Shown here: positions 4,010-61,520 of the stretch, piece after piece | How positions within the stretch are numbered: position 1 is the first letter of the stretch | Layout: the number at the start of each line of letters is the position of its first letter | NCBI GenBank assembly: GCA_964016885.1 | Contig: OZ024742.1 | Coordinates: forward strand, 59,148,001 to 59,212,000 | From: Eledone cirrhosa | Taxonomy: Eukaryota | Length of the DNA: 64,000 nucleotides | Direction: 5' to 3' | The notes under the pieces: generated by a model | The model's database searches: none | Told to the model about the DNA's origin: nothing | The model's input: only the letters and a program-made list of their open reading frames with translations | Program-made: the position numbers and the translations under genes

Positions 4010-4930
4010 AAAGGCTGCCTTCTTCTTGGGCTACTATCCTAAGGTTAAAGACAGAGAGGGAGGACTCTATTTTCACTGATAAAATAAAATATCACAGGGG
4101 TATATTTCAGGGGGACAGTCTCTTTGTGATATTATTCATCTTGTCATTAAACCCCCTGTCCTTTTTGCTCAAGAAATGTGAGGGATACATCATTTTGGCT
4201 CACAGGAGGACAGAAATACGAATCTAACCCATAATTTCTTTGTGGACGATCTGAAACTCTGTGCCAAGAACATGGATGGGATGAAGAAAAATCTTGACCT
4301 GGTCACAACGTTCTCAAAGGATATAGGAAAGGAGTTTGGCCAAGATAAATGCTCATACATGACTGTAAAGCGGGGAAAAACAACAACCCAATCTAGCAAC
4401 ATTGTCATCAATGGCCTAACTGTTTCATCGATATATGATGAGGACTGTTACAGATACCTGGGGATAGATGAGAACATGGTATTTGAAATAAGGAACGCGT
4501 AACCAGGGAATACTACACCCGATTAAGAAAGATTTGGTCATCGGAACTCTCTGCGCAAAACAAAACAAGTGGCTCACAATGTGTTTTTTGTTTCTGTCCT
4601 AACACCAACGTTTGGAATACTCAATTGGACGATAGACGAAATCCGAGCAGTTGATGTTGCAATTCGAAAAACACTAAACAACACCGGAAACTTCCACATC
4701 AACAGTGACATAGACAGCCTTTACTTGAAACGTAAGCAAGGAGGCAAAAGCCTAACATCAGTCCAGACAGCATTTGAATGTCGCATCATATCTCTCCGAC
4801 AACATCTACGAACCTCGAAGCGTAGTAGCCCGTCTCTCGTGCAAGTCTATCTGCATGAAACAGATAATATCATGAGAGTTGGGAAGGAACTCCTCGAGAC
4901 ATATTCCCTGTGTGATAATCAAAAACTCAC
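4010..4930 (+). mobile_element. Non-LTR retrotransposon RT fragment (R4/Dong-like), frameshifted
   Basis: GIFQGDSL...LNPLSFLL, FVDDLKL, YRYLG and LYLKRKQGG motifs across ORFs 3910-4227, 4242-4502, 4569-5024; preceded by (CATA)n. Confidence 0.8.
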
Positions 4931-4936
4931 AATAGC

Positions 4937-4978
4937 ACCACTGAAGATGTTGCAGATGTGCAACGAAAGAACTTTGAT
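4937..4978 (+). ncRNA. Type I hammerhead motif, slightly decayed
   Basis: ca CTGAAGA t gttgca gatg tgcaac GAAA gaac TT tg; perfect 6-bp helix II, weak helix I. Confidence 0.55.
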
Positions 4979-5266
4979 AGACTATATATATGTGTTTGTG
5001 TCTATATTGTGTCAGTATTTTTGACCGTTGGTCAGTCAATGGCAACATTGAGGGCCGAATAAATTAAATTAACCGATATAAAAGACACAGAAGCGAAAAG
5101 CGAAAACCAACCAGACAGTGAGTGTGTTCTGTTATTAATTCTGGCAATATTACACAAATATGACCCTCACCAAGTATAACAATATTTGTTTCGACATACG
5201 ATTTCATATAAAAAACCTCGCAAAACTAATTCATCGCAGTTATATATATATATATATATATATATA

Positions 5267-5465
5267 TAGGAAAAGAATCATGACTCCGACGACTGAGCTC
5301 CGGCCGTTTCGACAGCTAGATCTAAACTAAAGTTGGTATTTGTCGAAACGGCCGGAGCTCAGACGTCGGGGTCTTGACTCTTTTCCTATTACCCACTCTA
5401 CTACCCAAAGTATTGACTACTCTGATACGTTATGGTCGACCTGGTTCCTTACCGCATTTCCTTCG

Positions 5466-5469
<4 letters not shown>
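5267..5469 (+). mobile_element. Family A (TA)n-inserted fold-back fragment with hammerhead 3' half
   Basis: GAAAC-ggccggagctcagac-GTC ggggtc with inverted partner 5267-5315; homologous to 8441, 15220, 25008, 46875, 47870 and 54393 inserts. Confidence 0.7.
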
Positions 5470-5616: not shown

Positions 5617-5621
<5 letters not shown>

Positions 5622-6242
5622 CCTCCGCTATGTCGCGGTTCACTTTTCGCGGTCCTGCTACATCACCGAATTTTCTTTGGAACGTATCTAATTCCCTCTC
5701 GAGGTAATCCTTGCTACATCGTGGATTTTTCGTTAGAACATATCTATTTTCTTATCGCAGTACGTATGTCTGAATAAGAAAATTTTAAAATTTAAACTTA
5801 TTAAATAAGTTTCGATGTGATTGAAGTGTATAGCGTAAGGAAGGGGAATTTTGAAAATAATTTTAAAATTATAAAAAGTATGTTTTTGTTTTACATTCCA
5901 TTACTGTTTTACTGACTGTATTTTTCTCTCTCTAACCTACTACAAACACTTCATCGATTGACGGGAGATATCCAGTGTATCACCATGGCTGGTAATGGCC
6001 GTCATTGGTAACTAGTGATACGATCGTCGGTAGTAGTTTCTATACGGACGTTACCGGCTGATTTTGGAGTTTAAATACAAAAGTGTGTTTTAATGAGTTT
6101 ATATGTATTTAAAGCGTGTAGGAGAGGTATTTAAGGCTTAAACTATGAAAACAACGGTTGATTTTATGGTCTCTCTGTATCACGGATTTTCATTTATCGC
6201 GGTTGGTTCTGGAACGTACCGCCCGCGATAAACGGGGATTAC

Positions 6243-6310: not shown

Positions 6311-6314
<4 letters not shown>

Positions 6315-6930
6315 CCCCCGCTATATCGCGGTTCACTTTTCGCGGTCCTGCTACATCACCGAATTTTCTTTGGAACGTATCTAATTACCTCTCGAGGTAA
6401 TCCTTGCTACATCGTGGATTTTTCGTTAGAACATATCTATTTTCTTATCGCGGTACGTATGTCTGAATAAGAAAATTTTAAAATTTAAACTTATTAAATA
6501 AGTTTCGATGTGATTGAAGTGTATAGCGTAAGGAAGGGGAATTTTGAAAATAATTTTAAAATTATAAAAAGTGTTTTTGTTTTACATTCCATTACTGTTT
6601 TACTGACTGTATTTTTCTCTCTCTCACCTACTACAAACACTTCATCGATTGACGGGAGATATCCAGTGTATCACCATGGCTGGTAATGGCCGTCATTGGT
6701 AACTAGTGATACGATCGTCGGTAGTAGTTTCTATACGGACGTTACCGGCTGATTTTGGAGTTTAAATACAAAAGTGTGTTTTAATGAGTTTATATGTATT
6801 TAAAGCGTGTAGGAGAGGTATTTAAGGCTTAAACTATGAAAACAACGGTTGCTTTTATGGTCTCTCTGTATCACGGATTTTCATTTATAGCGGTTGGTTC
6901 TGGAACGTATCCCCCGCGATAAACGGGGAT

Positions 6931-6934
<4 letters not shown>
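6311..6934. mobile_element. Tigger/pogo-like MITE, copy 2 (tandem near-identical copy)
   Basis: Near-identical to 5617-6243, separated by a (TA)n tract. Confidence 0.7.
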
Positions 6935-7002
<68 letters not shown>

Positions 7003-7108
7003 ATAATAATAAAATTTAAGACTAAAATCCAAAGAGGGCTCGATAAGGAAAATATATATCAAATATATAAGAACCGTAGAGCAAATATTTATTAAAATAA
7101 CAGATTAA

Positions 7109-7159
7109 AGTTTAAGCAAAGAATCGCTGCTTTCACCCTTAACGGGATCTTCTGAAACT
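7109..7159 (-). ncRNA. Type I hammerhead, U4A core (family B)
   Basis: agttt CAGAAGA t ccc gttaa ggg t GAAA gca gcgattctt tgc TT aaact. Confidence 0.7.
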
Positions 7160-8087
7160 AACAAAGTCAATCTGTAAACGGAGAACTGGATATTTCAAAA
7201 AACGTTGCAACCGGAGAAAGACAGGAAGACGATACTTTGGTTCGTGGAAACGTTCGCTGGCAAAGAACGGGAAAAAACGAATATAATACGTCATTAATAG
7301 GAGCGGTGAAAAACAATTACGCGCAAAGACAGAACCACGTTTATGGTATAAAAGAGGTCGTAGACTAATGTTCTCTTAGGTTGTGCATAGAGACGTTCTC
7401 TGGCAATGAACGAAAAAACGAAGATAATAAGTCATATGTGGAGCGTGGAGAACAATAACACGCAAAGACAAAACCACGTAAATGGTATAGCAGAAGTTGT
7501 AGACTAAAATTCTAACTAGGAGACCAAATAAATCTCCGCTACAGAGTTAAGAACAAAGTAAATAAATACAATACAGAAGTAATAGAAACAAATAAATACA
7601 TACACGCAAACCGATACGTACATACACAAGCATACGCAAAACCATACCATAGGTATACAAAACCACGCACATATAAATATGTGTGTGTGTATGCTTGTGT
7701 ACAAATAAATAAATAATTATATAAACGTATATAAGTAAATAAATACGTATATAACAAGCGCACACACATACATACAAATAAATACACGAAAGTTCGGAGA
7801 CGTAAGTCAACTAAAACAAGAAGTACACATATACACACACCCACCATACGTACGAACCTGTATACTCCCGCAGACGCAAAACTCCGGTATACACATAGCC
7901 AAACCCTAAATACCAGAATATGTAAAAATTATACGTAATAACAGTCAAATATACGTACGAGAAGGTATACATACCTTCACAAAACATACGGGTAATATAT
8001 ACTTACCTATGCAAATGAGTAAAGGAATAAACAAAACATATTCTTAGCTCCCACATCAAGACGTAAAATATCCACGTATAGATCGTG

Positions 8088-8384
8088 CTATCCGTTAGGG
8101 TATAACGTGGGGCTGTAATACAGGAAAGTTTTGTGCAATTTATGTTTACAAGCCGAAATTGCCTCAGATTTTTTGTTTAAGATGTGGTCTGTGGCGTAGA
8201 GTATTTCCAGGGCCTCAGCGGCGCAGAGGTCACATGGTCTTTTATTTCCGTTATACGATCTAGCCCTAGCTAGGATCTCCCAGTGTAACTTATATTGGAT
8301 GTGGTTGTCTTTTAGACTCCAGATATAAGCTGAAAGTGACGTCATATTCCTTCTTAAAGGGTAACGAAAAGAATGGGTATGCAT
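8088..8384 (-). pseudogene. C-terminal half of PLE GIY-YIG endonuclease
   Basis: TSLSAYIWSLK...LHWEIL...SY...CDLCAAE...LNKKSE...CKH aligns by eye with the C-terminus of ORF 26676-27971. Confidence 0.85.
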
Positions 8385-8440
8385 TCTTTGCTTAAACTTT
8401 AATCTGTTATTTTAATAAATATATATATATATATATATAT

Positions 8441-8590
8441 ACTAAATGTGGTAAGGAACCAGGTGGACCATAACGCACCAAAGTACTCAATACTTAGGGT
8501 AGTAGAGTGGGTAATAGGAACGAGTAGGACCCCGACGGCTGAGCTCAAGCCGTTTCGATGGCTAATTCTGGACTCAGTCCAGAATTAGCC

Positions 8591-8594
<4 letters not shown>
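8441..8594 (-). mobile_element. Family A fold-back insert
   Basis: Reverse complement of the family A 3' end; terminal hairpin gctaattctggac-tca-gtccagaattagc; flanked by (TA)n. Confidence 0.7.
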
Positions 8595-9769: not shown

Positions 9770-10095
9770 AACAAATTTATTATAGAAGTAAGAAAGAATG
9801 CCAAGGAAAAATAGGACAACCATATGTCAAAATGAAAGATCACAAAACGCCCAATTGTAGATTAATCATCCCAGGAGAAGGCGAATTAAACGTAACGATC
9901 CAAACAATCTTAAAAGATTCAAAGAGCAAAATTTAACAAGCGATAATATTAATATAATGGTACAACAGTACATCCATCATCGACTGGTTCAACAACTCAT
10001 AAAATAACACGTTGTACAAAATCGCACAATTCAACATTCTAAGATTCTACGCACAATTAAAAAATCTCCTAATAAAGCACTGAACCTTTGAAATA
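9770..10095 (+). pseudogene. Degenerate PLE reverse transcriptase fragment
   Basis: KDHK..CRLIIP..GEL and W.NSTSIIDWF...QFNI..FY...LLIKAL match segments of the 28018-29139 RT; several stops. Confidence 0.65.
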
Positions 10096-10685
10096 ATGTT
10101 TTTACCATCAATAAGTAAAATATTGTACTTGGGAAAAATGTCTTTTGTTCAAGATCAACGCAGTCTGTTTAAATAAAGTAACTAAGAGCTTTTCGACATA
10201 AGCATGGTTGCTACAATGAAACAGAGACACGTGAACGTCGGAGCATTCGATATATATTCTGCGATTCTGCGATTTGATTTCAAATCCTGCTGAGGTCCAC
10301 ATTGCCAATAGTCGGATAAGCAAAATATTGTACTTGGAAAAAATGTATTTTGTTCAAAATCAATGCATTCTGTTAAAGAAAGTAACCAGCAGCTTTTGCT
10401 ACAACGACACAGAGACACGTGAACGTCGGAGCACACGATATTTATTCCTTGATTCTGCGATCAAGTTCAAATCCTGCCATGGTCCACATTGCCTTTCCTC
10501 CTTTCGGAAGGGACATTTTGATATTCTGCTGAATCAAGGGAGTGAGGGTTGAGAGAGTGTCAGTGTCTGTAAGAAAATACATGGATACCTAAAACCCTTA
10601 GTGAAATCATTGTATATATTATCAAGGCATTTACAATTGCGAGTGAAGGCTGTATTCCCCCCACTCCCTCATCCCGCATATGTAC

Positions 10686-13226: not shown

Positions 13227-13258
<32 letters not shown>

Positions 13259-13365
13259 GAACAGGTTAAAGCTTAAGCAATGAATAGGTGCTTTCACCCT
13301 TAACGGGATATATATATATAATCTTTATCGAGCCCTCGTCGAATTTTATTCTTCACATTTATTAT

Positions 13366-13458
<93 letters not shown>

Positions 13459-13562
13459 ATAATAAATTTGAAGACTAAAATCCAAAGAGGGCTCGATAAG
13501 GATAAATATATATCAAATATATAAGAACCGTAGAGCAAATATTTATTAAAATAGCAGATTAA

Positions 13563-13613
13563 AGTTTAAGTAAAGGATCGCTGCTTTCACCCTTAATGGG
13601 ATCTTCTGAAACT
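13563..13613 (-). ncRNA. Type I hammerhead, U4A core (family B copy in insert 13455-13630)
   Basis: Near-identical to 7109-7159. Confidence 0.65.
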
Positions 13614-13629
13614 AAAAAAGTCAATCTGT

Positions 13630-15219: not shown

Positions 15220-15388
15220 ATAGGAAAAGAGTCAGGACCCCGACGGCTGAGCTCCGACCGTTTCGACAGCTAGATCCGAACTAAGCCGTCGGGGTCCTGA
15301 CTCTTTTCCTATTACCCACTCTTCTTCTCTAAGTATTGAGTACTCTGGTGCGTTATGGTCCACCTGGTATCTTACCACACCCTCTTTG

Positions 15389-15391
<3 letters not shown>
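15220..15391 (+). mobile_element. Family A fold-back insert
   Basis: Inverted arm taggaaaagagtcaggaccccgacggc pairs with gccgtcggggtcctgactcttttccta; (TA)n flanks. Confidence 0.7.
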
Positions 15392-15457: not shown

Positions 15458-16129
15458 CGTGTGTGTGTGTGTGTATAGAAGCCCGTCGTAGGGATTGTGC
15501 ATTGTACTTGTGATTAAAACGGCCAGCCTTGTCATACCTCGTGTCTCGTTGAATGTCCATCAGAATTACGTTGAACATAAGCGTGTTAGTCGGATACTGT
15601 CACTTATACACGTTACTTCCTGAGCTGTTTTGTTAAACGTACAATTTTGGTGCTCATAGTAGAAATTGACTGAGATCCATTCCATTTTATTTATTATAAA
15701 TATATAGGGTAGTACGCTATAACCACTCACACGCTCACAGATCAGACCCAAGGGAAAAATATTTAGCTGACTGGCAAAATATCATCCATTAGTACTTTAT
15801 AAACATGGCTTACATATTTGCTAAAAGTGAACTAGTACACTGTAGAAATTATTCAATCGCCGTAGGGATTACAGCGTCTAAACAATTCAAACATTTATTA
15901 TTCAACAAGGAGTTAGATCATAAGATCCCACATTTTTTAATCTTCTAGATTCCTCGCAGACTTACATAATCTTCATCGGACGCCAATTACTAATTATGTA
16001 TGTATGCACGTATGTACGTAATTTGTACGGATGTACGTATGCATGTATACATACATACGTATGTATGTATGTATGTATGTATGTATGTATGTATGTATGT
16101 ATGTATGTATGTATGTATGTATGTATGTA

Positions 16130-16710
16130 TGCAAAACAACTCTTTTATGGAGAGTTGGTTAAAGGAAAACGACCGCCACATAAACCAAAAAAGAGGTATA
16201 AGGATTCCTTGAAAGTCTCTTTGAAAGACGCTAACATCTCTGCTGATACATGGGAAAATATTGCTGCTGATCGTAATAAATGGAGAAAGACTGTATATGA
16301 GGGAAAAGTTGCCTTTGAGGCATCTCGAATCGCATACGAGAAAGTAAAGCGGGATGTGAGGAAGGGCATTGTTGTTGCACTTCCAGACGGCGAGGGTCCT
16401 CCTATGGTGCTGACATGCAGCGTCTGTGCGAGACTCTGCCTAAGCAAAGCTGGACTCGAAAGTCATCTTCGCAATCATAAAGTAAGACCAGTGGTTGACT
16501 ACCAGGCTGCTGTTGGAGATGCTACTCATCATGCTTGCCAAACGTGTGGTAGAGAATGTAAATCAGCAGGAGGGCTCAAACGACATGCAAAAGTACAAGA
16601 ACTCCAACCACAGCCGGCTATTCCCAGTGAATGTTTTGGTTGCCGACTCTGTGCAAACATTTTAGATCATTGGCTGGGCTAAAAAGACACATTCGATCGC
16701 AGCGCTGTTA
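16130..16710 (+). mobile_element. RTE-clade LINE 3' ORF fragment with C2H2-like zinc fingers
   Basis: KQLFYGEL..GKRPPHKPKKRYKDSLK..WE..A.DR..WR, then CSVC..SKAGLESH and CQTC..SAGGLKRH; 3' stem-loop at 16970-17003; preceded by (TATG)n. Confidence 0.85.
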
Positions 16711-25007: not shown

Positions 25008-25011
<4 letters not shown>

Positions 25012-25123
25012 GAAGGAATTGTGGTAAGGAACCAGATGGACCATAACGCACCAAAGTACTCAATACTTGAGTCCAGAAATAGCCGTCGAAACGGCTTGAG
25101 CTCTGCCGTCGGGGTCTTACTTA
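25008..25123. mobile_element. Family A inverted insert next to the large PLE
   Basis: Family A 3' end on minus joined to TGAgtccagaaatagccgtcGAAACggcttgagctctgccGTCggggtc on plus. Confidence 0.7.
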
Positions 25124-25140
25124 TATATATATATATATAT

Positions 25141-25916
25141 ATATGAAATATAAGAATCAAAGAACTGTTCAAAACATTATTGTGCTTACAGCTGTTTCCT
25201 CCAAACCGAGGTTTGGATTCTTCGGAGCAATTTATTAATGCATGGACAGTTATATGACCTCCTTTTCAGCCGAGAGACATACCAATACATATTCAAACAT
25301 TGATACATATTCAAACATTGTGGGTCAACATTCATTACAAAATTTAGAGTGGCAGTACACACTTCGAGATTACATTTATATTAATAGGTACAATCAAAAA
25401 TCAAAGATATAGGTTAAAGTACAACATGAAGATAAGTGGTTATATAGTGCAAATGTTATATGTGTGGCACGCATGTGCGTCTTGTTTATATAGTGTGGCA
25501 GAGAGATATATGTGTGGTAGAGGCACTTAGGTAGGTAAATAAGAGTGTTAGGTTGGTAGATCTGGTGGCAAAGTCTTTATATGATTGATGTAGTCTGTGT
25601 GTGGAGAAATATTATAAGCATTAAAGATAGTGCAAGCATTAAAAGTGTTATAAGTATTGGAGAAGCACAACGCAGGGATGTCAAGTAATTCATGTACTTC
25701 GGCATTTTCATGGTCAAGGGAGTGTATATTTCGATTATATGCCTTTCACATAATCCACGACAATCCAGTTAGAGATCGTAGTCTGGTGCTCTTTAGTTCG
25801 ATACAGGAGGTTGTTACGTTTCGAGAGACGCCATTGAATACCGGAAGTGTGTGTGTGGCTAAGGGGAGTTAATGCATGCGGGGAGGTAACTCTGGGGTTT
25901 CTATATCTAGCCATTA
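25141..25916 (-). repeat. 3' pseudo-LTR
   Basis: Identical by eye to 29347-30115 except a 7-bp indel. Confidence 0.9.
25183..25229 (-). ncRNA. pLTR type I hammerhead, U4C core
   Basis: tgct CCGAAGA a tccaaacc tc ggtttgga g GAAA cagctg TA agca. Confidence 0.85.
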
Positions 25917-26675
25917 AAATGTGTCCCAATATGGACCCTAAATTCTATGGTGAGGTGCACCTTCCAAGAGAGACTTTTAAAGCATGAAGTGTACTAACTA
26001 TAGAGTAGTTTAACTAAATTATGCTGAAGGTGATCATATTATTATTAAGGTGGATTAACCCATCTTAAGGTGCTACAAATGGAAATTATAGATGATGAGC
26101 GAGGATTCTAAATTAATGATCTCTGTGGTTGTAGTCTGCTCATATGACCAGGCGCGGTGATTGCAGGATTGCTTCAGGACCCAATGATCTCTGGTAAGAT
26201 CTGGGTCATCGCTTGCTACATTGGATGTCGAAAGATAATCGTCCCCAGGCAGGCCAAAAGGTCAATCCGCAGTCCTCGCGACCCCTCTCTGACCATCAGA
26301 TCATCCATATACGTACAACCCGCACGGCAGTTGCATTGCATTCACTCACTGCGCTCAGCAGCCCGGTCCTACTGGTCAACAGCGCTACTCGATTAAATCA
26401 TTTTACATCTGTCTAAGGAAGGTGTTTCCTCTGCCCAACACCATCCAACCGATCAATTCATGCTCAAATTACCCTTAGAGCGGTGTAGTGCCGTCCAGGT
26501 GGGTGGATGTTGTCACACCTGCCGTAGAGGTATAAATGGGTATTTTCCCTGCGAAGGGTTCCAGAGGGATGTCGTTGTTTGTGTTATAATGGATCAGCTA
26601 GTGTTGGGTATGTAGTATAGGGTGTGTCTCTGGTGTTTGATGCTAGATGTGGTGTTAGGTTCCAGTCCGACATTG

Positions 26676-27971
26676 CTATATATAGGGCTTAAAGTTTTGG
26701 AAGGAATGTCTGAGGCGGTGCTGGCAAGTTGCAAACACCTCAGATTTTTTGTTAAGTAGGTTACGGTTGGAGAAGATAATATTGTGTGTCTCTAGTATAC
26801 AGAGGTTACAGAATTTATTAGGTGGTTTGTACGAGGTCGCGCTGCCTATCACTTCCCATTTGAGTGTGTATGGTTTATTTTTAGATTTTAGATAGTGTAT
26901 GTAGCTAGAAAGTGAGGTGGAGTTGGCTAGGCTGTGCTTTTTGAACGAGTGGATGTGCGAGTTATATCTAATTTTGAAGCAGTTAGAAGTGGAGCCTACA
27001 TAGGTTTCTGAAGAGTTATTAGTCGTGACTGTGCATGAGTATATGACATCCTTGGTTAGGCATTTTTTATCTAAAGGGCAGGTTCTATTAGCTCTACAGT
27101 TACACTTATTCTGTGCGTTAGTCCGCTGGTTATAATGCAATGCGGAAGTCTGTGTGGTGGATATAGGATTTTGGGTGTTCAGGTTGACAACCCTGGTGTT
27201 ATTACTTATACTAGTGTTATTTCTATTGTTACTGCCGTTGCTATTGTTGCTTGCTACAGTGGTATTTAGAGGGTTTGCATCCCGTTGTGATTTTGTTTGT
27301 TGGAAGTAAGAACTAATTTTACTATTATTGCTGCTAGCTATGTGGTATGCTAAGTTAGGCGTCGTAGAGTATGAGATTTTAATGGTGTTTTTGTTTAAGA
27401 GGTTGTGGTACTTGTGTCCTAGAGGGAAGTTTTTATCTAGTAGTGAGAAGAAAGCCCTAGGTATGTTGGTGGAGACATTTAGGTTGAAAGGAGGGTTGAA
27501 AAATGTATTATTTCTTCTTCTATTTTTGCTTTTAGTGTTTGGTGTGTTGCTTCCTCCTAAGGCCTCACAGTAGTTTCCATGGTAATGGTTACTTCCGGTG
27601 GCACCCTCCGCTTTGGTGTACTTGTGGTTGCTATTCCTATTATTAGATTTCCTCATGGACATGTTGTGCGAGATGATGTTGTAGCTATGTGTTTTCTTAG
27701 GTAGGAACTCTATTTCTATATTATGGCCGGAGCTAGCTAATGCTTGATTGTAATATTGTGAGTTTTTGCTAAATATGTTTGCGTCATAGGACAGACTAGA
27801 GATTCTATTGGACACCCCCTTAGAGATAGAGTTTAATATTGATCTAGGGTGATTAGACTTGGTATCTACGTAAATAAGTTTCTCATTAGGCTTATGGAAA
27901 GGTGTATATATTTTTGAGTCTAGGTATAGTGTGGCGTCTAGGAAGTTAACATTTTTAGTGTTTTTGTCCAT
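26676..27971 (-). CDS. PLE polyprotein, C-terminal part: RT thumb, Asn-rich linker, CxCx5C motif, GIY-YIG endonuclease
   Basis: VNFLD, YVDTKSNHP, FNPPF, CNCRANRTC, VIY...YVG...RYNSH, CNLCILE; in frame with the RT if one A of the A10 run at 28038-28047 is removed. Confidence 0.9.
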   Translation of the reverse strand: MDKNTKNVNFLDATLYLDSKIYTPFHKPNEKLIYVDTKSNHPRSILNSISKGVSNRISSLSYDANIFSKNSQYYNQALASSGHNIEIEFLPKKTHSYNIISHNMSMRKSNNRNSNHKYTKAEGATGSNHYHGNYCEALGGSNTPNTKSKNRRRNNTFFNPPFNLNVSTNIPRAFFSLLDKNFPLGHKYHNLLNKNTIKISYSTTPNLAYHIASSNNSKISSYFQQTKSQRDANPLNTTVASNNSNGSNNRNNTSISNNTRVVNLNTQNPISTTQTSALHYNQRTNAQNKCNCRANRTCPLDKKCLTKDVIYSCTVTTNNSSETYVGSTSNCFKIRYNSHIHSFKKHSLANSTSLSSYIHYLKSKNKPYTLKWEVIGSATSYKPPNKFCNLCILETHNIIFSNRNLLNKKSEVFATCQHRLRHSFQNFKPYI

Positions 27972-28017
27972 GGTGATACTAAGGTTAAAGTTTTTGAATG
28001 TCTTATGCAGTTGTTTT

Positions 28018-29139
28018 CTAGTTCTTTCTATATAAAATTTTTTTTTTATATTCTATGAGTAGAAGTGCATCATCGCGGTACAAACCACCGTTGAGGTAAG
28101 GGAGGTCTTTATGGATTTCATTGAGGAGGTATAGGCCGACCAAATCAGTGACCTGCGCCGAATCACTAGATCCCATGGTTATGTCGAAGTTGTTGTGCGT
28201 ATCCTTGCGTGTCCATAGTTGGTCCTCGAAGGTGATTATGGTTTTACGGGCCGCAAGGATGACATCAACCTGGGCTCTAGTCAGGTCGCTATTGGTCATG
28301 GCCATGATAAGTGCCTTATTTAATAGGATAGGGGAAATAGAGGTGTAGTATGAATTGATATCAAATTGAATAAATTTTTTGTTCTTATTATTCTTGATAT
28401 CCTTAAACCATTCAATTACTTCACCCGTATTTCCCCATTGTTTAAGGTGTATCTTGTGTTTAATTTGTGGGATGATTTTATCCAAAATCTTCTTGCTGAT
28501 AATACCAATGTCGGACTTGGAAGGGCAGATAAGTCTTATCGTGGGGTTGCTGATGAAGTTCTCCTTATGGTCCTTCAGAGAGAATCTAGGGGGGTTCGGA
28601 GTGAAAGGTTGTGTATGCCTCTGTAGTCCTAGTTTAGACACTATATTATAACCCTCTACATTAATATCTTCTAAGTTTTTCAAGGTGGTTTTTTTGTAGC
28701 TTTTATGTAGTTCATTATATATAAACTTTCTATAAGTAATATAATCTAGGCTGTATATGTTATTAGTTTTATCTGCGTGTACAATAATTTTATTACTAGT
28801 TTTGAATCCACTAATAGAAGTGTTAAGTTTGTTTAAGAAGGTGTTGCTTCTAATATGGTGCTTATTGTATTTAATGTTCTTAACTAGTTTAACTAGGTCA
28901 TTTTCAAAGGAGTTAAGTAGAGTGTTATGAGGGGGGCTTTTAAAGGTTTTAAAGCCGAAGGAGTCAAAATTGTTAGTATTATTCAAGTTGTTAGATTTGT
29001 TTCTATCATAATGGAATGTCCTCCATCTCACTCTATTGATAAATGAATTTACACTGTTGATCAGCAATTTCTCATATGTATTCCTGGATGGTATTGGTAT
29101 GTTCTTGGTTGACATGGGGAGTTGGTCTTTGATTAGCAT
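28018..29139 (-). CDS. PLE polyprotein, N-terminal part: reverse transcriptase
   Basis: ADKT, KDHK..P.IRLI, QFDINSYYTSI, TMGS, YRDD catalytic motif. Confidence 0.92.
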   Translation of the reverse strand: MLIKDQLPMSTKNIPIPSRNTYEKLLINSVNSFINRVRWRTFHYDRNKSNNLNNTNNFDSFGFKTFKSPPHNTLLNSFENDLVKLVKNIKYNKHHIRSNTFLNKLNTSISGFKTSNKIIVHADKTNNIYSLDYITYRKFIYNELHKSYKKTTLKNLEDINVEGYNIVSKLGLQRHTQPFTPNPPRFSLKDHKENFISNPTIRLICPSKSDIGIISKKILDKIIPQIKHKIHLKQWGNTGEVIEWFKDIKNNKNKKFIQFDINSYYTSISPILLNKALIMAMTNSDLTRAQVDVILAARKTIITFEDQLWTRKDTHNNFDITMGSSDSAQVTDLVGLYLLNEIHKDLPYLNGGLYRDDALLLIEYKKKILYRKN

Positions 29140-29346
29140 ATTGGCAATATTATATGTCAGCTCAACGATATGGAGCAGTTAATAGTATTAGTTATACTAT
29201 TTATGGTTATGTAAACACAAAACCTTAAGCAGTTGTAAGTATTTTACACACACCCTAAATAGTGGTAGGCAGTAATGTATTACTACCTTATTACCAGTAA
29301 GTTAAGTAGCTCAATGTAAAAACATCAGATGATTTACAGAGCAGTT

Positions 29347-30115
29347 ATATGAAATATAAGAATCAAAGAACTGTTCAAAACATTATTGTGCTTACAGCTG
29401 TTTCCTCCAAACCGAGGTTTGGATTCTTCGGAGCAATTTATTAATGCATGGACAGTTATATGACCTCCTTTTCAGCCGAGAGACATACCAATACATATTC
29501 AAACATTGATACATATTCAAACATTGTGGGTCAACATTCATTACAAAATTTAGAGTGGCAGTACACACTTCGAGATTACATTTATATTAATAGGTACAAT
29601 CAAAAATCAAAGATATAGTACAACATGAAGATAAGTGGTTATATAGTGCAAATGTTATATGTGTGGCACGCATGTGCGTCTTGTTTATATAGTGTGGCAG
29701 AGAGATATATGTGTGGTAGAGGCACTTAGGTAGGTAAATAAGAGTGTTAGGTTGGTAGATCTGGTGGCAAAGTCTTTATATGATTGATGTAGTCTGTGTG
29801 TGGAGAAATATTATAAGCATTAAAGATAGTGCAAGCATTAAAAGTGTTATAAGTATTGGAGAAGCACAACGCAGGGATGTCAAGTAATTCATGTACTTCG
29901 GCATTTTCATGGTCAAGGGAGTGTATATTTCGATTATATGCCTTTCACATAATCCACGACAATCCAGTTAGAGATCGTAGTCTGGTGCTCTTTAGTTCGA
30001 TACAGGAGGTTGTTACGTTTCGAGAGACGCCATTGAATACCGGAAGTGTGTGTGTGGCTAAGGGGAGTTAATGCATGCGGGGAGGTAACTCTGGGGTTTC
30101 TATATCTAGCCATTA
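29347..30115 (-). repeat. 5' pseudo-LTR
   Basis: Direct repeat of 25141-25916. Confidence 0.9.
29389..29435 (-). ncRNA. pLTR type I hammerhead, U4C core (second copy)
   Basis: Identical to 25183-25229, 4206 bp away. Confidence 0.85.
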
Positions 30116-30287
30116 TATTTCATATAACTGCTCTGTAAATCATCTGATGTTTTTACATTGAGCTACTTAACTTACTGGTAATAAGGTAGTAATACATTAC
30201 TGCCTACCACTATTTAGGGTGTGTGTAAAATACTTACAACTGCTTAAGGTTTTGTGTTTACATAACCATAAATAGTATAACTAATAC

Positions 30288-30345
<58 letters not shown>

Positions 30346-34475: not shown

Positions 34476-34754
34476 TTTTTACTTTCTAAAGAAAAATCAA
34501 CTAACGTTATATTGTCATTAGTTTATAATATATATTTGACCACCTATATATATATATATATATATACATATATATATAAAGATATAAAGAATTAGTATAT
34601 CTAGTAACATATATATACACAGATGCATACTTATGCTAGCAAATATATAGGTTTTGTCTTAGTAAATTGTGGTTCAATGCATGGGATGCAGAACAATAAT
34701 ATGAGAGACGTAAAATAAGAAAATTATAAAATTAACTTACTTACTAAAATTTCA

Positions 34755-34837
34755 CTCCAACTAATTAGTTTCTGAAGGGAATAAACATAGTTTCCGAAGA
34801 AACGTACGGAGAAGCCTTTCGTTTCGTCATCAGGGAA
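34755..34837 (-). ncRNA. Type I hammerhead with long helix II domain
   Basis: ttcc CTGATGA ... GAAA ctaattag TT ggag. Confidence 0.65.
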
Positions 34838-35391
34838 GTCTATTCTCAGCTAAGTTTCCAGGCAATACGTGGACACAGGGAACTTATACAAAAATAATTC
34901 AGTGGATGGAAAAAAGCAAAGCGTGGACTAAATTCCAAGCCATTGAAAAAATCACTGCCTACTGCGTCGGTGGCAAATTCAAAAGAATCAGTCACGTGAC
35001 AACGAGGTCAATCAGTGAAGAGTGGTTTGTTAAGAAGACAGCAACCGGACCGTTACTATAGTAGCAGTTTTGGCCAATTTTTGCTCGACAAAATAATTTG
35101 GAGATAATTATAAAGAATTAGTATATCTAGTAACATATATATACACAGATGCATACTTATGCTAGCAAATATATAGGTTTTGTCTTAGTAACTTTGTGGT
35201 TCAATGCATGGGGATGCAGAACAATAATATGAGAGACGTAAAATAAGAAAATTATAAAATTAGGCAGTAGGCAGTGATTTTTTCAATGGCTTGGAATTTA
35301 GTCCACGCTTTGCTTTTTTCCATCCACTGAATTATTTTTGTATAAGTTCCCTGTGTCCACGTATTGCCTGGAAACTTAGCTGAGAATAGAC

Positions 35392-35470
35392 TTCCCTGAT
35401 GACGAAAGGCTTCTCCGTACGTTTCTTCGGAAACTATATTTATTCCCTTTCAGAAACTAATTAGTTGGAG
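35392..35470 (+). ncRNA. Type I hammerhead with long helix II domain
   Basis: ttcc CTGATGA c gaaagg [loop] cctttc a GAAA ctaattag TT ggag. Confidence 0.75.
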
Positions 35471-35564
35471 TTAAATTTTAGTAAGTAAGTTAATTTTATA
35501 ATTTTCTTATTTTACGTCTCTCATATATAAAGATATATATATATATATATGCATATGTATATAC

Positions 35565-35598
<34 letters not shown>

Positions 35599-35745
35599 AT
35601 ATGACCAAAAGTTTATATGGTTCGTTGATTATTCAACGAATTAAATTTTACAATAGATTAGAAGCACTAGACCAAATTTATCTGGAGTATCTATAATATT
35701 CAAAATATTAATAAATGAGAAATACTTTCATAACCAAAGTATATA

Positions 35746-35804
35746 TTTTATTATACATATTTCAAGGGTACAGTGGATTTTGAGTACGCTTTCATCAGAT
35801 AAAA
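35746..35804 (-). ncRNA. Type I hammerhead (family C)
   Basis: ttttat CTGATGA aagc gtac tcaaaatccact gtac cctt GAAA tatgta TA ataaaa. Confidence 0.85.
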
Positions 35805-36534
35805 CATAAGAGATCCTTAAATCCCTGTAGTGGCAGTAAGTTACTTCCTCAACACTCAACATTTATATGCCACAAATAATATGTTAACTTAAAGAAGAAG
35901 ACGCAAAGCAACAAAGAAATATAGAAGGGAAGTTGAAAAGGAAGATGCGGAGAGAAAAAAAGAAGAAAAGAAGAGGATAAAAACAACAACCGTTGTATTC
36001 AGACCCTATACACAAATTTAAAAATTATTCTTATTAGTTATCAATGAATGCCGCTTGCATTGGATTAAGCTTTAATTAATTTATAGGTTTATAATATACT
36101 AATATACCTAGATTATTGGGCATAGATTAATTTCTACGGCAATCGAATATTTAAGTTCTTACACATTTATATGCTTAGATTAATTCCTTCGAGGTTATGA
36201 CAATGTTTTATTATAAGGTTTTATTATATTGTTATATATTCTATGTAGCATTATAATGTATATTTAAACACTTTATCTTTAATGTTTATTAAATATCTAC
36301 TAAATATGTATTAAATATGCGTATATCCACATCAATATATAATACATCTAAATTAATTCAAAATTCCTTTTCAACTTCCCTTCTATATTTCTTTGTTGCT
36401 TTACGTCTTCTTCTCTAAGTGAACATATTATTTGTGGTATATAAATGTTGAGTGTTGAGGAAGTAACTTACTACCACTATTGGGATTGAAGGATCAAGAC
36501 CTTAGGGCTATGTCGAATAACCAATCTCTTGTGT

Positions 36535-36591
36535 TTTATCTGATGAAAGCGTACTCAAAAACCACTGTACCATTGAAATATGTATAATAAA
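36535..36591 (+). ncRNA. Type I hammerhead (family C, inverted arm of insert 35602-36645)
   Basis: tttat CTGATGA aagc gtac tcaaaaaccact gtac catt GAAA tatgta TA ataaa. Confidence 0.8.
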
Positions 36592-36637
36592 TTATATACT
36601 TTAGTTATGAAAGTATTTCTCATTTATTAATATTTTG

Positions 36638-36681
<44 letters not shown>

Positions 36682-37251: not shown

Positions 37252-37340
<89 letters not shown>

Positions 37341-37356
37341 TAAAATAACAGATTAA

Positions 37357-37407
37357 AGTTTAAGCAAATAATTGCTGCTTTCACCCTTAACGGGATCTTC
37401 TGAAACT
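37357..37407 (-). ncRNA. Type I hammerhead, U4A core (family B), near-minimal insert
   Basis: ~75-bp island between (TA)n tracts consisting of little more than the motif. Confidence 0.7.
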
Positions 37408-38503
37408 ATATATATATATATAACTATGCAAATAGAAGTGGTCAAATTAGTTAATTTCCTGTTTACATGAGGTAAAGGTTGTCTTCAAATATTTGAAACC
37501 CTCCCCTCTAAAAAAAGATTAAAAGTCTTAATTAAAAGATTTAATCGCCCCCCCCCCCCCAACACACACACACACCAATATTATATCTCTGCTTACATTA
37601 GAAACCATGACTGGTGGATTGGCAAAAATCATAAAAAACATCGAAGTGCAACCTGGTATTTGTTTTGGCTGTTTATTTTATCATTTAAAATCAGGCCAAG
37701 GTCAACATCTAACCGGTGTCGATAAAATAAAGTAACACTCAACGAATTGGGGTCCATATTATCGAATTTCCCCTCCCCCAAATTGCTGACCTTGTGCTAA
37801 CGTTAGAAAAACAATATTAATGAATCAATTACACTGCAAATATAATTTACTAGGATATTTTCTCACATCATTTGTTATTCACTGAAAATATTTTCATGCA
37901 TGCTTTCCAAGATGTACGTAATTCTCTTTGATGTAAGAATAGGGATACTCTTGATGTTATCTCCAAAGCTTATACCATAATAAAAATAATAATAATAGTC
38001 TGGGTGTTGGGGTTATATAGTAGAGTGGTGTCAGCCATGATCGTTTTAAACAGATGTTGGCAAAACGTTTGAATAATACCGTTGGGGTAATTTTCTAAAT
38101 ATGTTAAGAACGCCAACACAAAAACAACTACAAGAAAAAAATATACTTCAGCGCTGTCATAATTGTCTTTATAAGGAAAGACGGTGGAATGGCAAGAGTG
38201 TAGAATATAGCACCAAACAAAAATTGAAAAAAAGAAAGGAAAGGTCCCTAAACCACAAATGAAGTCGTCATGACGCCGTTTTGAAACATGGCGTGTCTTG
38301 GGGATTTTAAACCTCATGGGTATGTCCCTTACCACATATATATATATATATTTAGGTTTGAAGGTTAACCACTGGCTAGAGCTGGTCAATTCCGTACGAT
38401 TTAGGGGGACGGGGTTTCAAATATTTGAAGACTACCTTTAACTTATGTAAACAGGAAATTAACTAATTTGACCACTTCTATTTGCATAGTTATATATATA
38501 TAT

Positions 38504-45609: not shown

Positions 45610-46627
45610 CTGTTAAAAGAGACAAGAGAGAGATAGAGAGTATATAGGAAAAGGTGAAAATTAGTGCAATATATGATATTTATAGGAGAGGAGAATAAAG
45701 ATTTTCAGGTAAAGGAAGAGATGAAAGATTAAAGATAGGTAATATGATGATAAAGTAGTTGATAGCTATATTTTAGACTGGCCGGTGGGACCATTCAGGA
45801 TATAGAAAAAGAGTAGATTGTCGACACGTTGAAATAAAGAGATATGTGGCTGCAATAAAAGTGAGTTAATGTGAATGTATATAGATACTAGAATTATCCT
45901 AAAATAGATGCAGAGATGTGGTATCGAATCTTATATAGTAGTTGTGATAGTTGGTGTTGAGAATACCTGTTTAACCCTTTAGTATTCACATTACTCTATA
46001 TATATACTATATTTTCATGGTAAAGGCTTTACCTCGCATAATTATCTCACATAATATCGAATCTATGAGATTTTGAAAGTATTTATTTTGAGAACAATAC
46101 CTTAACATCAGTTTGAGCGACCAGTTACAGCCAGTTTCAACAGAACGAGGTAGAGAATTCTGGCCGATTTTGGCCGGTTTGAACATTAAGTTTAATATGC
46201 TGGTGTGTCTATTATCTAAAGGGTAATGCAATATTAACTATACTATAAATTAGTTATGGTTGCACGAGTGTGAAAGTGAGATGTGTATATTACCTATGGT
46301 GACGTTATAGAAAATATATAATGGTATGTGGATTGATTTCCGCAAGTCCGGGTTTGTAAACGTGAAATTGTTACAAAATGCGGATACCTCTATTTTGTCT
46401 TACACACACACATACATATATTGATACCCATATTTTTCTGTTCAGTGGGATTATATGCTCCATAGTCATAATAATACGGTGAAGCTTCTATTTCTATTTC
46501 AAAGTGAGGTTTTTTCCAAAATGAAAAATAACCGAGGTGTCCTAGTGAAAGTATAAAGAAAAAAAGATGAAATCGAAAATGCAACTGGAGTCTTATTTAA
46601 AAAAATATATATATATTTATTTGGTTC

Positions 46628-46663
46628 CTTTACCGGTTTCGCAGTTCTTCTGCTTTTCAAAAG
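46628..46663 (-). ncRNA. Minimal hammerhead, U3-A8 core (left palindrome arm)
   Basis: Mirror image of 46741-46776. Confidence 0.65.
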
Positions 46664-46740
46664 TAGAGTTGAGATGGAGGGTCTGTGGTTTTTCCCACAT
46701 CTGATGAGAGAAAAACCACAGACCCTCCATCTCAACTCTA

Positions 46741-46776
46741 CTTTTGAAAAGCAGAAGAACTGCGAAACCGGTAAAG
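46741..46776 (+). ncRNA. Minimal hammerhead, U3-A8 core
   Basis: ctt TTGAAAA gcag aagaa ctgc GAAA ccgg TA aag. Confidence 0.65.
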
Positions 46777-46843
46777 GAACCAAATAAATATATATATATT
46801 TTTAAAATAAGACTCCAGTTGCATTTTCGATTTCATCTTTTTT

Positions 46844-46878
<35 letters not shown>

Positions 46879-46949
46879 AAAATGTATGACCCCGACGGCA
46901 GAGCTCAAGCCGTTTCGACGGCTATTTATATATATGCGCAGGCGTCATC

Positions 46950-54394: not shown

Positions 54395-54579
54395 GGAACA
54401 AGTAAGACCCCAACGGCTGAGCTCAAGCCGTTTCGACGGCTAAGTCCAGAATTAGCCGTCGAAACGGCTTGAGCTCAGCCGTAGGGGTCTTACTTGTTCC
54501 TATTACCCACTCTACTACCCTAAGTATTGAGTACTTTGGGGCGTTATGGTCCACTTGGTTCCTTACCACATTTCCTTCG

Positions 54580-54582
<3 letters not shown>
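54393..54582 (+). mobile_element. Family A fold-back insert (best preserved)
   Basis: ~50-bp arms around gtccagaa; GAAAC ggct tgagctc agcc GTA ggggtc. Confidence 0.75.
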
Positions 54583-54771: not shown

Positions 54772-54928
54772 GTTTGTATATGTATGTATATATATATATA
54801 TATATATATATGCATATATATATGTATATATTTAAAGGTTAAACAAGGTTCGATGAATAAATCAAAGAATTAGTTTTACAATAGATTGGAAGCACTCAAC
54901 AGTAATAGAACTTCATTGTGATCAAGTA

Positions 54929-54994
54929 TATTTTATTATACATATTTCAGAGGTACTGAGTTAACTTCAACTGACGTCCTCATCAGATAAAATA
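54929..54994 (-). ncRNA. Type I hammerhead (family C-related)
   Basis: tattttat CTGATGA ggacgtcagttgaagttaactcagtacctct GAAA tatgta TA ataaaata. Confidence 0.85.
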
Positions 54995-55408
54995 AGATGA
55001 TGCATGACATACCCTGACATAGTAGATGGTTAAGATCCAGTCATGGTAGTGAGTAATATATGACAAAACTCAATATTTATATACCTTAATATTGAGACAT
55101 GAAAAAACTTACACATAACACATATAATACAGAGGGTGCGTGTGAGAAAGCTTAAAAATACATAACAATAATTTACATAACTGTTAGAGATTCAAATAAT
55201 TATTGAAGAAAGAGGAAAGAAAAAAGACAGAGAGAAAACATATGAGGGGAAACTATAGATAGTAGAGGTATAGAGAGCAAAGGAAAATTGATCTAGGAAA
55301 GAGAGACAAAGAGGAATAATTATAATTATAGGGAGAGATGTATAGTTATGTATGATATATATCCATACACAACTATACATTTGGGCATAGGTATGCGATA
55401 GAGTAAAC

Positions 55409-55457
<49 letters not shown>

Positions 55458-56202: not shown

Positions 56203-56253
<51 letters not shown>

Positions 56254-56258
<5 letters not shown>

Positions 56259-56436
56259 GAAATATATGTTCATATAACTGCTCTGTAAATCATCTGATGT
56301 TTTTACATTGAGCTACTTAACTTACTGGTAATAAGGTAGTAATACATTACTGCCTACCACTATTTAGGGTGTATATAAAACATACTTATAACTGCATAAG
56401 GTTTTGTATTTACATAACCATAAATAGTATAACTAA

Positions 56437-56441
<5 letters not shown>
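56254..56441 (+). mobile_element. Minimal insertion of the large-PLE family (tail segment only)
   Basis: Matches 30119-30290 and ends at the same base; preceded by inverted atatgaaatata. Confidence 0.85.
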
Positions 56442-56475
<34 letters not shown>

Positions 56476-56590: not shown

Positions 56591-56636
56591 GTATATATAA
56601 TATAAGATCAAAAGATGGTTAAAGGAGTTCCATATA

Positions 56637-56703
56637 TTTTATTATGCGCATTTCAAAAACAAACATCATCAAGCAATAATATTTGTGTTTTCATCAGATA
56701 AAA
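56637..56703 (-). ncRNA. Type I hammerhead (family C-related)
   Basis: ttttat CTGATGA aaacacaaatattattgcttgatgatgtttgttttt GAAA tgcgca TA ataaaa. Confidence 0.85.
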
Positions 56704-59010: not shown

Positions 59011-59015
<5 letters not shown>

Positions 59016-59718
59016 TATGAAGAGAGAAGAAACATTTAGATATAATTAGTAATAAAATGTATCATACCTAAACTGCTCCTAGATTCCTCGACTACGTAGT
59101 TTCGTGGCATAAACAAAACCAATACATCATAAAGATATAGAGTCCTTGCGAGGTCTGCCGACTTATCAAGAGGATACCTCATTTTACTAGTCTCAAGAAC
59201 GCGTCTACACGACGTGAGAAAGAATCCCAAAAGGAGGAGGGGGAGATAGTCACGCGATATAACGGTCGAGAAACAGAGCTAAGCCTCTTATAACCCCGAA
59301 GAAAATACCACGGAGGCGGAGGGGGTATTTATATCGAAGCCGTAGAAGAGGTGGTGAAGGGGGCGAGAAGTATGAGTAATGGAAGCTTTCCAGCAGTCCC
59401 CACACTTCAAAGATTGCTCGACCAGAGGGAGTTATTAACAATATATTTAGAAACACACAGGTACATGCGAACACACACATATACATGAATGCATCCGCAC
59501 CCAACCGTGAGTTAAGGGTGCCAACTTCACCGATGTTGCTCAATGAATGACTGGGACAGACCAATCCGGTTGAACCAGACTGAACCAGTATCAGAGTTAA
59601 AAATACATTATGAAGAGAGAAGAAACATTTAGATATAATTAGTAATAAAATGGTTGGGTGCGGATGCATTCATGTATATGTGTGTGTTCGCATGTATCTG
59701 TGTGTTTCTAAATATATT
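59011..59718. mobile_element. Retrozyme-like non-coding element, ~593-nt monomer plus inverted arm
   Basis: ~48-bp direct repeat at 59011/59604; 59652-59718 is the reverse complement of ~59439-59506; hammerhead at 59085-59174. Confidence 0.75.
59085..59174 (-). ncRNA. Type I hammerhead, U3-A8 core, long helix II
   Basis: tcctc TTGATAA gt c ggca [~44 nt] tgcc ac GAAA ctacgtag TC gagga. Confidence 0.75.
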
Positions 59719-60391: not shown

Positions 60392-60955
60392 TATATATAT
60401 ATATGTGTGTGTATGTCTGTGCATATATTTATTCTGTGCTATTTTCTAAGTATATTACATTTACAGCCAAATCTTCAACAGCTACCACTCTACTATTCCG
60501 TATCAACACCATCACTCTGATTAACAATAACACCATTTAATGGCGTTCTTTTGTAAACATTTAACAGCAAAGCTTTAATAAAATTAATTGTTCCATCATT
60601 TATCAGTGTCATCACTCTTGTTCTTATCGTTCTCACTGATACCAATGCCACAAATACCCCCCTGCAAAATTTCCATTAACATTTTTTTAAAACAGTATCC
60701 ATAGACTGAACAACAGAGTCAACGAGCCTTTTGACATGGCTCAACGCACACACACAAACACACGCAACACACGCACGCATTCATTCACACACAAACACAC
60801 ACGCGCGCACACACACGCAGGCACACAAACTCCCTCTCTTTTTCTGTCTCTCACTCACACACAAATATATATATATAAAACGTTTACGAGTATACATTTG
60901 CGTATATATACATACACAAAAATGTATGTATGTATATATATAGATTGATTGTTTT

Positions 60956-61006
60956 AGTTTCAGAAGATCCCGTTAAAGGTGAAAGCAGCGATTCTTTGCT
61001 TAAACT
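60956..61006 (+). ncRNA. Type I hammerhead, U4A core (family B)
   Basis: agttt CAGAAGA tcccgttaaaggt GAAA gca gcgattctt tgc TT aaact. Confidence 0.65.
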
Positions 61007-61022
61007 TTAATCTGTTATTTTA

Positions 61023-61053
<31 letters not shown>

Positions 61054-61483: not shown

Positions 61484-61520
61484 ATTAACAAATGGAAACT
61501 ATATTTATAAAACCATATTT

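Follow-up and report, generated by a model that had tools for sequence, protein, structure and literature searches.

The element at positions 25141–30290 of a 64,000-nucleotide (nt) stretch of Eledone cirrhosa DNA (contig OZ024742.1; hereafter the window, whose numbering is used throughout) is assigned by its sequence motifs to the Hydra clade of Penelope-like elements (PLEs). Its two outer ends enter (TA)n tracts on opposite strands, and each of these junctions precedes one of two conserved bulged hairpins of the form GCTC…GAGC. The insertion was probably produced by twin target-primed reverse transcription from these two hairpin-marked sites on one RNA longer than the element unit. Element sense corresponds to the minus strand; the left (TA)n junction, at the 3′ end of the pseudo-long terminal repeat (pLTR), is termed site 1, and the right (TA)n junction, at the end of an inverted arm, is termed site 2.

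The left target tract (25122–25144) meets the 3′ pLTR copy (25141–25916, minus strand) at site 1, with 5 nt of TA microhomology to the internal template. The pLTR is a direct repeat of 777 nt (25140–25916 and 29346–30115; 99.1% identity in a self-comparison of the window), the copies of which differ by one 7-nt indel alone and by no substitutions. The upstream copy (29347–30115, minus strand) represents a 5′-truncated second pass through the 4,206-nt unit and carries a private 7-nt deletion near 29617. Internally, a 165-nt tail lies between site 1 and site 2 (29182–29346, minus strand), and it recurs in the inverted arm (30113–30290, plus strand), which comprises the last 10–13 nt of the pLTR and the tail, includes a copy of hairpin 1 at 30130–30166, and ends at site 2 with 3 nt (TAT) of microhomology to the right target tract (30288–30343). 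The original prediction that both (TA)n junctions are element 3′ ends on opposite strands is confirmed, and the two ends fall at fixed, signal-marked sites. It had also described the right arm as inverted and abutting the end of the long arm with an overlap of about 13 nt. The orientation and the abutment hold; the arm is an exact reverse complement of 29182–29359 (178/178), of which 165 nt follow the pLTR and the remainder is overlap, given here as 10–13 nt, the inner junction being ambiguous over a 3-nt TTA microhomology. The long arm measures 4,975 nt, or 1.18 units, and together with the tail the two arms cover 1.22 units. A target-site duplication, if there is one, is masked by the pure (TA)n target.

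A second insertion of the family at 56250–56442 (plus strand) consists of a site-1 arm of about 13 nt and the same tail arm, the latter 95.6% identical, and has the same two junctions. Since this copy shares both junctions, and a Logan contig of sequencing run X1 starts exactly at 29182, the layout is not a product of chance. In both window copies the overlap of the arms ends at the foot of the extended stem I of a hammerhead motif, a coincidence that suggests it may reflect a structural stall rather than a collision of polymerases.

A hairpin at each junction

Hairpin 1 (29306–29342, minus strand) is formed by GCTC, a 6-bp upper stem, a TT bulge and GAGC, and lies 7 nt after the first TA base of site 1 and 50 nt after the predicted hammerhead cleavage site. 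Hairpin 2 (29157–29176, minus strand) is formed by GCTC, a C-G pair, a TT bulge and GAGC, and lies 8 nt after the first TA base of site 2 and about 24 nt before the ATG of the open reading frame (ORF). The full pattern occurs in the sense unit at these two places alone (29342 and 29176), while the loose pattern occurs at three, with a background of 1.26% of positions.

A scan of metagenome contigs yielded at least 78 related loci, in 39 of which the ORF start could be placed; 37 have at least 100 nt of upstream sequence. GAGCACT is the most frequent 7-mer within 250 nt upstream of the ORF, being present in 34 of the 37 loci listed and in two copies in 27, near −90 and −27. The corresponding counts were 0.24 on average and 3 at most after shuffling, 0/37 in the same window inside the ORF, and 1/37 for the reverse motif. 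GCTC is found upstream of 81 of the 88 GAGCACT motifs in the loci listed. The 2-nt 3′ bulge above the GCTC/GAGC stem is TT in 44, TC in 16 and TA in 9 of 69 distinct hairpins. Hairpin pairs were counted with fixed anchors, a cross-family MAFFT alignment of the hairpins being uninformative, and Watson-Crick pairing holds at the three inner positions in 68/69, 47/68 and 31/41 cases (means after shuffling 38, 18 and 11.5; maxima 51, 31 and 22 in 2,000 shuffles), counts which are inflated by sequence relatedness and of which the first partly separates hairpin 1 from hairpin 2. Slid registers score much lower than the anchored one. TAT or ATA occurs within the 12 nt before the stem in 58 of the 69 hairpins (28% at random), and the distance from the hammerhead to hairpin 1 is 36–64 nt in 40 cases among the relatives listed, compared with 50 nt here.

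The same signal is found at other junctions. Of 159 junction probes from the window, 56 match another copy whose sequence beyond the junction is non-TA, and in 19 of these 56 a hairpin follows within 12 nt (background 1.2%); the 56 continuations include unrelated repeats and 5′ junctions. The fold-back set comprises 29 pairs (33 window pairs minus 5 redundant or short interspersed element (SINE) pairs, plus 56250), script hits at 62058 and 19435, the long-loop hit 5269 and the left hit 54395 having been dropped as chance or artefact. A fully paired hairpin stands right after the end of the partner arm in 10 of the 29 pairs, and a version with three of four pairs in 2 more (background 2%), in line with the prediction that many fold-backs in the window share one plan. 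At the related locus L073, from another host, that plan is repeated as (TA)n, an inverted arm from site 2, and then a longer-than-unit arm. The hairpins are also present in published Hydra consensus sequences; that of Hydra-1_Ajap begins 2 nt ahead of hairpin 1, and in Hydra-1_Crog the hairpin takes a GCCC/GGGC form (PMC8557442, supplement). Here and below, statements on published work apply to the portions of each source that were covered.

How the two arms may have been copied

Across copies, the outer ends are fixed and the inner breakpoints variable, with arms that overlap widely or leave gaps. Long arms of 13, about 87, 357, 770 and 4,975 nt are present; a fixed pLTR length, which the original prediction had named as a finding that would count against it, is not seen. 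Two window insertions, at 13251–13370 and 25012–25122, have opposite, non-overlapping arms with both TA ends visible and gaps of 26 and 30 nt, while elsewhere in the window the tail-side arm passes site 1 by 30–1,300 nt. The 4,206-nt unit was also compared with four of 20 listed runs, two of them raw DNA libraries made by restriction and the other two contig sets. Opposite-strand joints account for six of the 15 joints listed: 29213/29433 (55 and 65 reads), 29222/29704 (8 reads), 29246/30110 (9 and 2), 29521/30110 (11 and 5), 29526/30110 (15 and 6), and 27249/30110 (59 reads from one run and one start point, not relied on). The first three imply gapped arms, with gaps of about 100–135 nt. In the first two, the shorter sides, of 30 and 42 nt, agree with how far each joint lies from site 2. 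With the site-2 end taken as fixed, the read joints give tail arms of 32, 41, 65 or about 340 nt, as against 178 nt in both window copies. Microhomology of 5–6 nt is present at joints 29246 and 29521/6.

The features used to recognize twin priming in L1 elements are found at this locus: two opposite arms, each with its 3′ end joined to the target, and microhomology at the inversion junction. The earlier proposal of two primings from both ends of a palindromic (TA)n target is supported. That the arms copy adjacent parts of the RNA is true here, given the overlap of 10–13 nt, but does not hold as a rule, since other copies show the gaps (26, 30 and about 100–135 nt) and long overlaps (30–1,300 nt) described above. 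Twin priming is favoured because the two window insertions with non-overlapping opposite arms could not be produced by fold-back alone, and a single RNA engaged at two sites is favoured because, in the hairpin-bearing fold-backs, one arm ends at its site while the other continues past the hairpin of that site.

In the mechanism that we consider probable, the element protein, perhaps in two copies, would bind both hairpins, and its endonuclease would cut both (TA)n strands. Each target 3′ end would then pair with a short TA-like stretch 5′ of one hairpin. The polymerase at site 1 would run for 4,975 nt (1.18 units) across two hammerhead sites, thereby generating the pLTR, while the polymerase at site 2 would copy the 165-nt tail and halt at the foot of hammerhead stem I; in other copies it would halt earlier or displace far beyond site 1. 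The two cDNA ends would finally be joined at the 3-nt microhomology. That Hydra-clade PLEs in general insert by such programmed twin priming, with two copies of the reverse transcriptase (RT)/endonuclease on two hairpins of one RNA, possibly a circle made by the hammerheads, and with both ends of the broken (TA)n target extended from fixed internal sites, is put forward tentatively, as slightly less likely than not.

Several observations weigh against twin priming or against the hairpin as its signal. The short arm lies wholly within sequence copied by the long arm, and therefore a fold-back on the cDNA also fits this locus. For most fold-backs in the window the tail arm continues through site 1, and copying of that kind on one RNA would call for strand displacement. 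Single-arm insertions exist (37335–37408, 60942–61028 and 46875–46927), so that twin priming is not obligatory. The 19 junction hits contain repeats of single families (4 of family F, 2 of family A and 3 of this family), 17 of the 29 fold-back pairs are without a usable hairpin call, and the pair at 8442–8593 ends inside the hammerhead. The loose GCTC…GAGC pattern was defined once the junctions of this locus were known, and the counts of G-U versus A-C pairs (6 versus 4) do not discriminate between action of the hairpin as RNA and as DNA. All read joints derive from libraries made by restriction and have one or two start points each; joint 29433 adjoins AATT, and the outer TA ends of the joints are not visible. 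Finally, the RT start sites of PAc, the Poseidon element of Anolis (Frangieh et al., 2024, PMC11167929), are alike on top and bottom strands, and it primes at non-homologous sequence.

The alternative that survives best, although it appears unlikely, is single priming. The cDNA would here fold back, copy its own earlier part and be resolved onto the other end of the target at the second of the hairpin-marked sites, either through a cut by the endonuclease or through TA microhomology. In favour of this, the long arm includes the whole of the short arm at 100% identity, and one arm is nested in the other in most window fold-backs. Against it, the gapped arms (13251–13370, 25012–25122 and the three read joints) would have to be explained by deletions on one side, of as much as several hundred bases, and in vitro the RT of PAc begins at each boundary of the tail on RNA (PMC11167929).

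Priming from both ends on two separate RNAs, one per polymerase, would explain the overlaps of 30–1,300 nt without strand displacement; the short arm would then be uninformative about the template of the long arm, and 1.18 units would suffice. This is decidedly improbable. A free choice of sites predicts same-site pairs, whereas in the hairpin-bearing fold-backs one arm stops and the other passes (37423/38490 left aside), and the apparent same-site pair 13321/13503 represents two separate back-to-back insertions. Moreover, the tail copies are identical over 178 nt, whereas just 28% of the aligned reads of run X18 (6,492/23,094) are at least 99% like the reference.

Antisense-transcript self-priming (Arkhipova 2013), which has been published for head-to-head PLE junctions with palindromes (PMC3846280), two independent back-to-back insertions, as the clustering of insertions within shared (TA)n tracts might suggest, and an assembly artefact, given that no read or contig in the four runs spans the whole locus, are together very improbable, because the inner junction has only a 3-nt microhomology and neither (TA)n nor a palindromic spacer, the same design recurs at 56250–56442, in other families and at L073, and the hairpins found 3′ of the junctions are confined to the sense orientation (1/37 for the reverse motif).

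Hammerhead-like motifs and the nature of the template

Two type-I hammerhead-like motifs are present on the minus strand, with cores that start at 25225 and 29431 and a spacing of 4,206 nt. The downstream one (25183–25228, minus strand) is a minimal motif with a CCGAAGA core, a palindromic stem III and a predicted cleavage site at 25186/25187. The upstream one (29358–29469, minus strand; predicted cleavage at 29392/29393) folds as type I with a long stem I that ends at 29358 (fold z −2.9). Rfam returned 0 matches at the gathering score and so did not call the hammerheads. The spacing agrees with that originally reported, as does the extension of the long arm by about 680 nt beyond the upstream motif, measured from its 5′ edge, but the description of the hammerheads as uncut goes further than the DNA, which shows a copy running across both sites. 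The long arm requires a template longer than one unit, in agreement with the predicted 1.2 units or so.

DNA alone does not discriminate between a circle and a tandem. An uncleaved tandem or read-through transcript is the probable template and a template jump distinctly unlikely. A circle of 4,206 nt, cut and re-ligated by the hammerheads and copied for 1.18 turns, stands between them and is rather doubtful. The two pLTRs are free of substitutions between them yet jointly differ from most copies at 29546, 29789, 29863 and 29869, and longer-than-unit arms also occur in window units of 526 and 593 nt that are non-coding, both of which would suit a circle; circles have been proposed for PLEs (PMC4209133) and shown for retrozymes (PMC7229834). 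Conversely, a 7-nt deletion distinguishes the two pLTRs, and the CCGAAGA core departs from the CTGA that starts the core in 26/26 Hydra rows of Craig's file S2 and in 17/19 matches in relatives. Metazoan minimal PLE hammerheads are poor cleavers (PMC4209133), and PAc works without cleavage, with no RNA reads ending at its hammerhead site (PMC11167929). A source copy with a long arm from site 2, such as 34579–35532, would moreover give a linear pLTR-ORF-pLTR-tail transcript, so that no circle is needed. A joint 30110→25920 (556 and 510 reads) was rejected as evidence for a tandem or circle, as it is an artefact of the point at which the unit was cut.

The CCGAAGA core is also found in the X1 contigs covering the hammerhead, and a non-G-C pair below stem II is common among the 26 published Hydra rows. 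The hammerhead of a neighbouring element at L019 2928 likewise has the CCGAAGA core, and the variant is therefore not unique to this family. Contig depth peaks at 29280–29419 in X2 and X1, a depth that is summed over sister subfamilies and is not a copy number. Hundreds of reads leave the reference at 29350 and 29436, which could represent a sister subfamily whose hammerhead region has diverged, or else many copies inverting at the 5′ edge of the hammerhead. Long arms with their 5′ end at that edge occur at L058 2280, L073 761 and read joint 29433, and could indicate where transcription begins or where the RT stops; the pLTR described here, at 770 nt, extends far past that edge. Hydra copies at L014 965, L039 664 and L010 455–472 have a 5′ end that abuts (TA)n in sense near a hairpin site. 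These are insertions of nearly one unit and are compatible with a circle copied for one turn or with TA microhomology joining the 5′ end.

Clade identity, neighbouring insertions and known systems

The ORF (26676–29139, minus strand; ATG at 29139, stop at 26676) encodes, judging by its translation and motifs, a Hydra-clade RT with a C-terminal GIY-YIG-type endonuclease. The RT motifs and the VIY…YVG endonuclease motif lie in two frames, separated by one frameshift in an A-run near 28030–28050, and the ORF aligns end to end with single-ORF homologues of about 700–800 amino acids. Longer homologues number 757 at E ≤ 1e-3 among 7,141 candidates, with best identities of 36–46%. RWR and DKT are present in the translation, with D123-K124 invariant across 89 sequences; the linker has CNC-X5-C (CxCX5C), CxxC…E and N…CxH are present, CCHH is absent, and the GIY-YIG core is without a cysteine pair. 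In the window, (TA)n lies on either side of both family copies. The element is placed in the Hydra clade because these motifs match the definition in section 11 of PMC8557442. Naiad and Chlamys were rejected since the endonuclease is C-terminal rather than N-terminal, and Neptune and Nematis since the linker is CxCX5C rather than CX2-5CxxC and CCHH is absent. A Pfam search of the ORF protein returned no significant match, a PDB sequence search returned nothing meaningful, and 73 pattern matches in viral contigs included 0 relatives. The unit of 4,206 nt exceeds 3 kb on account of its N-rich linkers and long 3′ untranslated region (UTR), the unique part of which occupies 25917–26675 (minus strand).

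Other insertions in the window resemble this one to varying degrees. A 526-nt non-coding unit at 34579–35532, with a hammerhead-like core and both hairpins in a GTTC/GAAC variant, appears to be a retrozyme-like dependant of a Hydra element; its site-2 arm is 684 nt (1.3 units) and its site-1 arm 268 nt, with a possible target duplication of 13–14 nt. At 59013–59717 a 593-nt unit, also non-coding, forms a longer-than-unit insertion with a 640-nt arm and a 66-nt inverted arm. A short family (5269–5466, 8442–8593, 15223–15389, 25010–25121, 46875–46927 and 54395–54580) has a hammerhead stem III and a compensatory ACTC/GAGT hairpin, and its arms often end about 60 nt upstream of site 1. A second Hydra-type family at 6999–8420 has a 1.4-kb arm reaching into the endonuclease coding end (tblastn 8402–8118) and an 86-nt tail, and short one- and two-armed copies of it are found at 13251–13370, 13452–13620, 37335–37408 and 60942–61028. 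A perfect fold-back around a hammerhead at 46560–46846, with a very long stem II, an internal (TA)6 and a junction without the GCTC hairpin, possibly belongs to another PLE clade. Minimal hammerheads with a TTTTAT stem I occur in (TA)n-flanked fold-backs at 35580–36642, 54824–55412, 56591–56700 and 61298–61943, and a SINE-like repeat is inserted in a fold-back arm at 61310–61484. Tandem 625-nt elements at 5618–6242 and 6311–6933, 98% alike and with inverted-looking ends, lie between (TA)n tracts and resemble miniature inverted-repeat transposable elements. Further retroelement ORF fragments, at 4527–5024, 9817–10239 and 15924–16682, comprise C-terminal ends like those of long interspersed elements and a decayed PLE-like RT piece.

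The element shares with the published Hydra clade, including Hydra-1_Obim, the RWK-like and DKT motifs, CxCX5C, CxxC/CxH, the lack of CCHH and the (TA)n target (PMC8557442); its pLTR has a type-I hammerhead-like fold, where the published clade has a hammerhead. It differs in its CCGAAGA core, in its 165-nt tail compared with a hairpin spacing of 53–82 nt in relatives, and in its 4.2-kb unit, members of the clade being generally under 3 kb, a size that is a tendency in the source paper and not diagnostic. Like a typical Penelope insertion it has two direct pLTRs, an adjacent inverted 5′-truncated copy and a one-sided tail (PMC3846280; Craig 2021, Figure 2 legend), but the tail is 165 nt rather than 30–40 nt, and the inverted arm is nearly all tail. 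Both of these sources invoke antisense self-priming or endonuclease resolution for such structures, not twin priming.

PAc cleaves and extends both DNA strands in vitro, with uncut hammerhead RNA and multi-copy mRNA as template, and its tail is bounded by two adjacent internal sites at which the RT starts, as is proposed here. Its starts lie inside one AC-rich ORF stem-loop without target homology, whereas the two sites described here belong to the 5′ UTR, where each precedes a hairpin of its own and has 3–5 nt of TA homology; the portions of PMC11167929 covered draw no link from the two start sites to inverted arms. In L1 twin priming (PMC2912911) both target ends prime on one RNA, as proposed here, and the inverted segment is joined by microhomology, but one primer is at the poly(A) end and the other at a variable internal site, whereas here neither site varies, both are internal and each carries a conserved structure, and wide overlap of the arms is frequent. 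Circular RNA as a template for more-than-unit reverse transcription was proposed in 2014 (PMC4209133) and repeated in PMC6765202. Hammerheads one unit apart and more-than-unit reverse transcription are common to that model (PMC4209133; PMC7229834; bioRxiv 10.64898/2026.07.22.740005) and to this locus; circles have been shown for retrozymes of 170–400 nt with canonical ribozymes, whereas the present element is an autonomous PLE of 4.2 kb.

The layout of pLTR, inverted arm and tail, the circle and the uncleaved template are all known ideas (PMC3846280; PMC4209133; PMC11167929). The paired hairpin as a cis signal, one per junction, is apparently undescribed. It is not mentioned in the passages of PMC8557442 covered, in its section 11 or in the portions of its supplement covered, and the words "hairpin", "stem" and "tail" are absent from the searched text of the bioRxiv retrozyme paper (10.64898/2026.07.22.740005). 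Neither twin priming for PLEs nor this hairpin pair was found in the literature surveyed, on which subscription papers, Repbase reports, figures and most of Craig's supplement may also bear.

PLEs are the closest relatives of the telomerase RT, and the origin of their tandem and inverted insertions and one-sided tails was stated to be open in PMC8557442. A short cis signal that is clade-wide and occurs twice per element makes the insertion mechanism of PLEs directly testable. The hairpin pair also supplies a rule for the boundaries of Hydra elements and of their many small non-coding dependants, and the hairpin is a candidate minimal RNA handle for the Hydra-type RT. If programmed twin priming is true, a single reaction would yield the pLTR together with the inverted arm and the tail, and the spacing of the hairpins would set the length of the tail.

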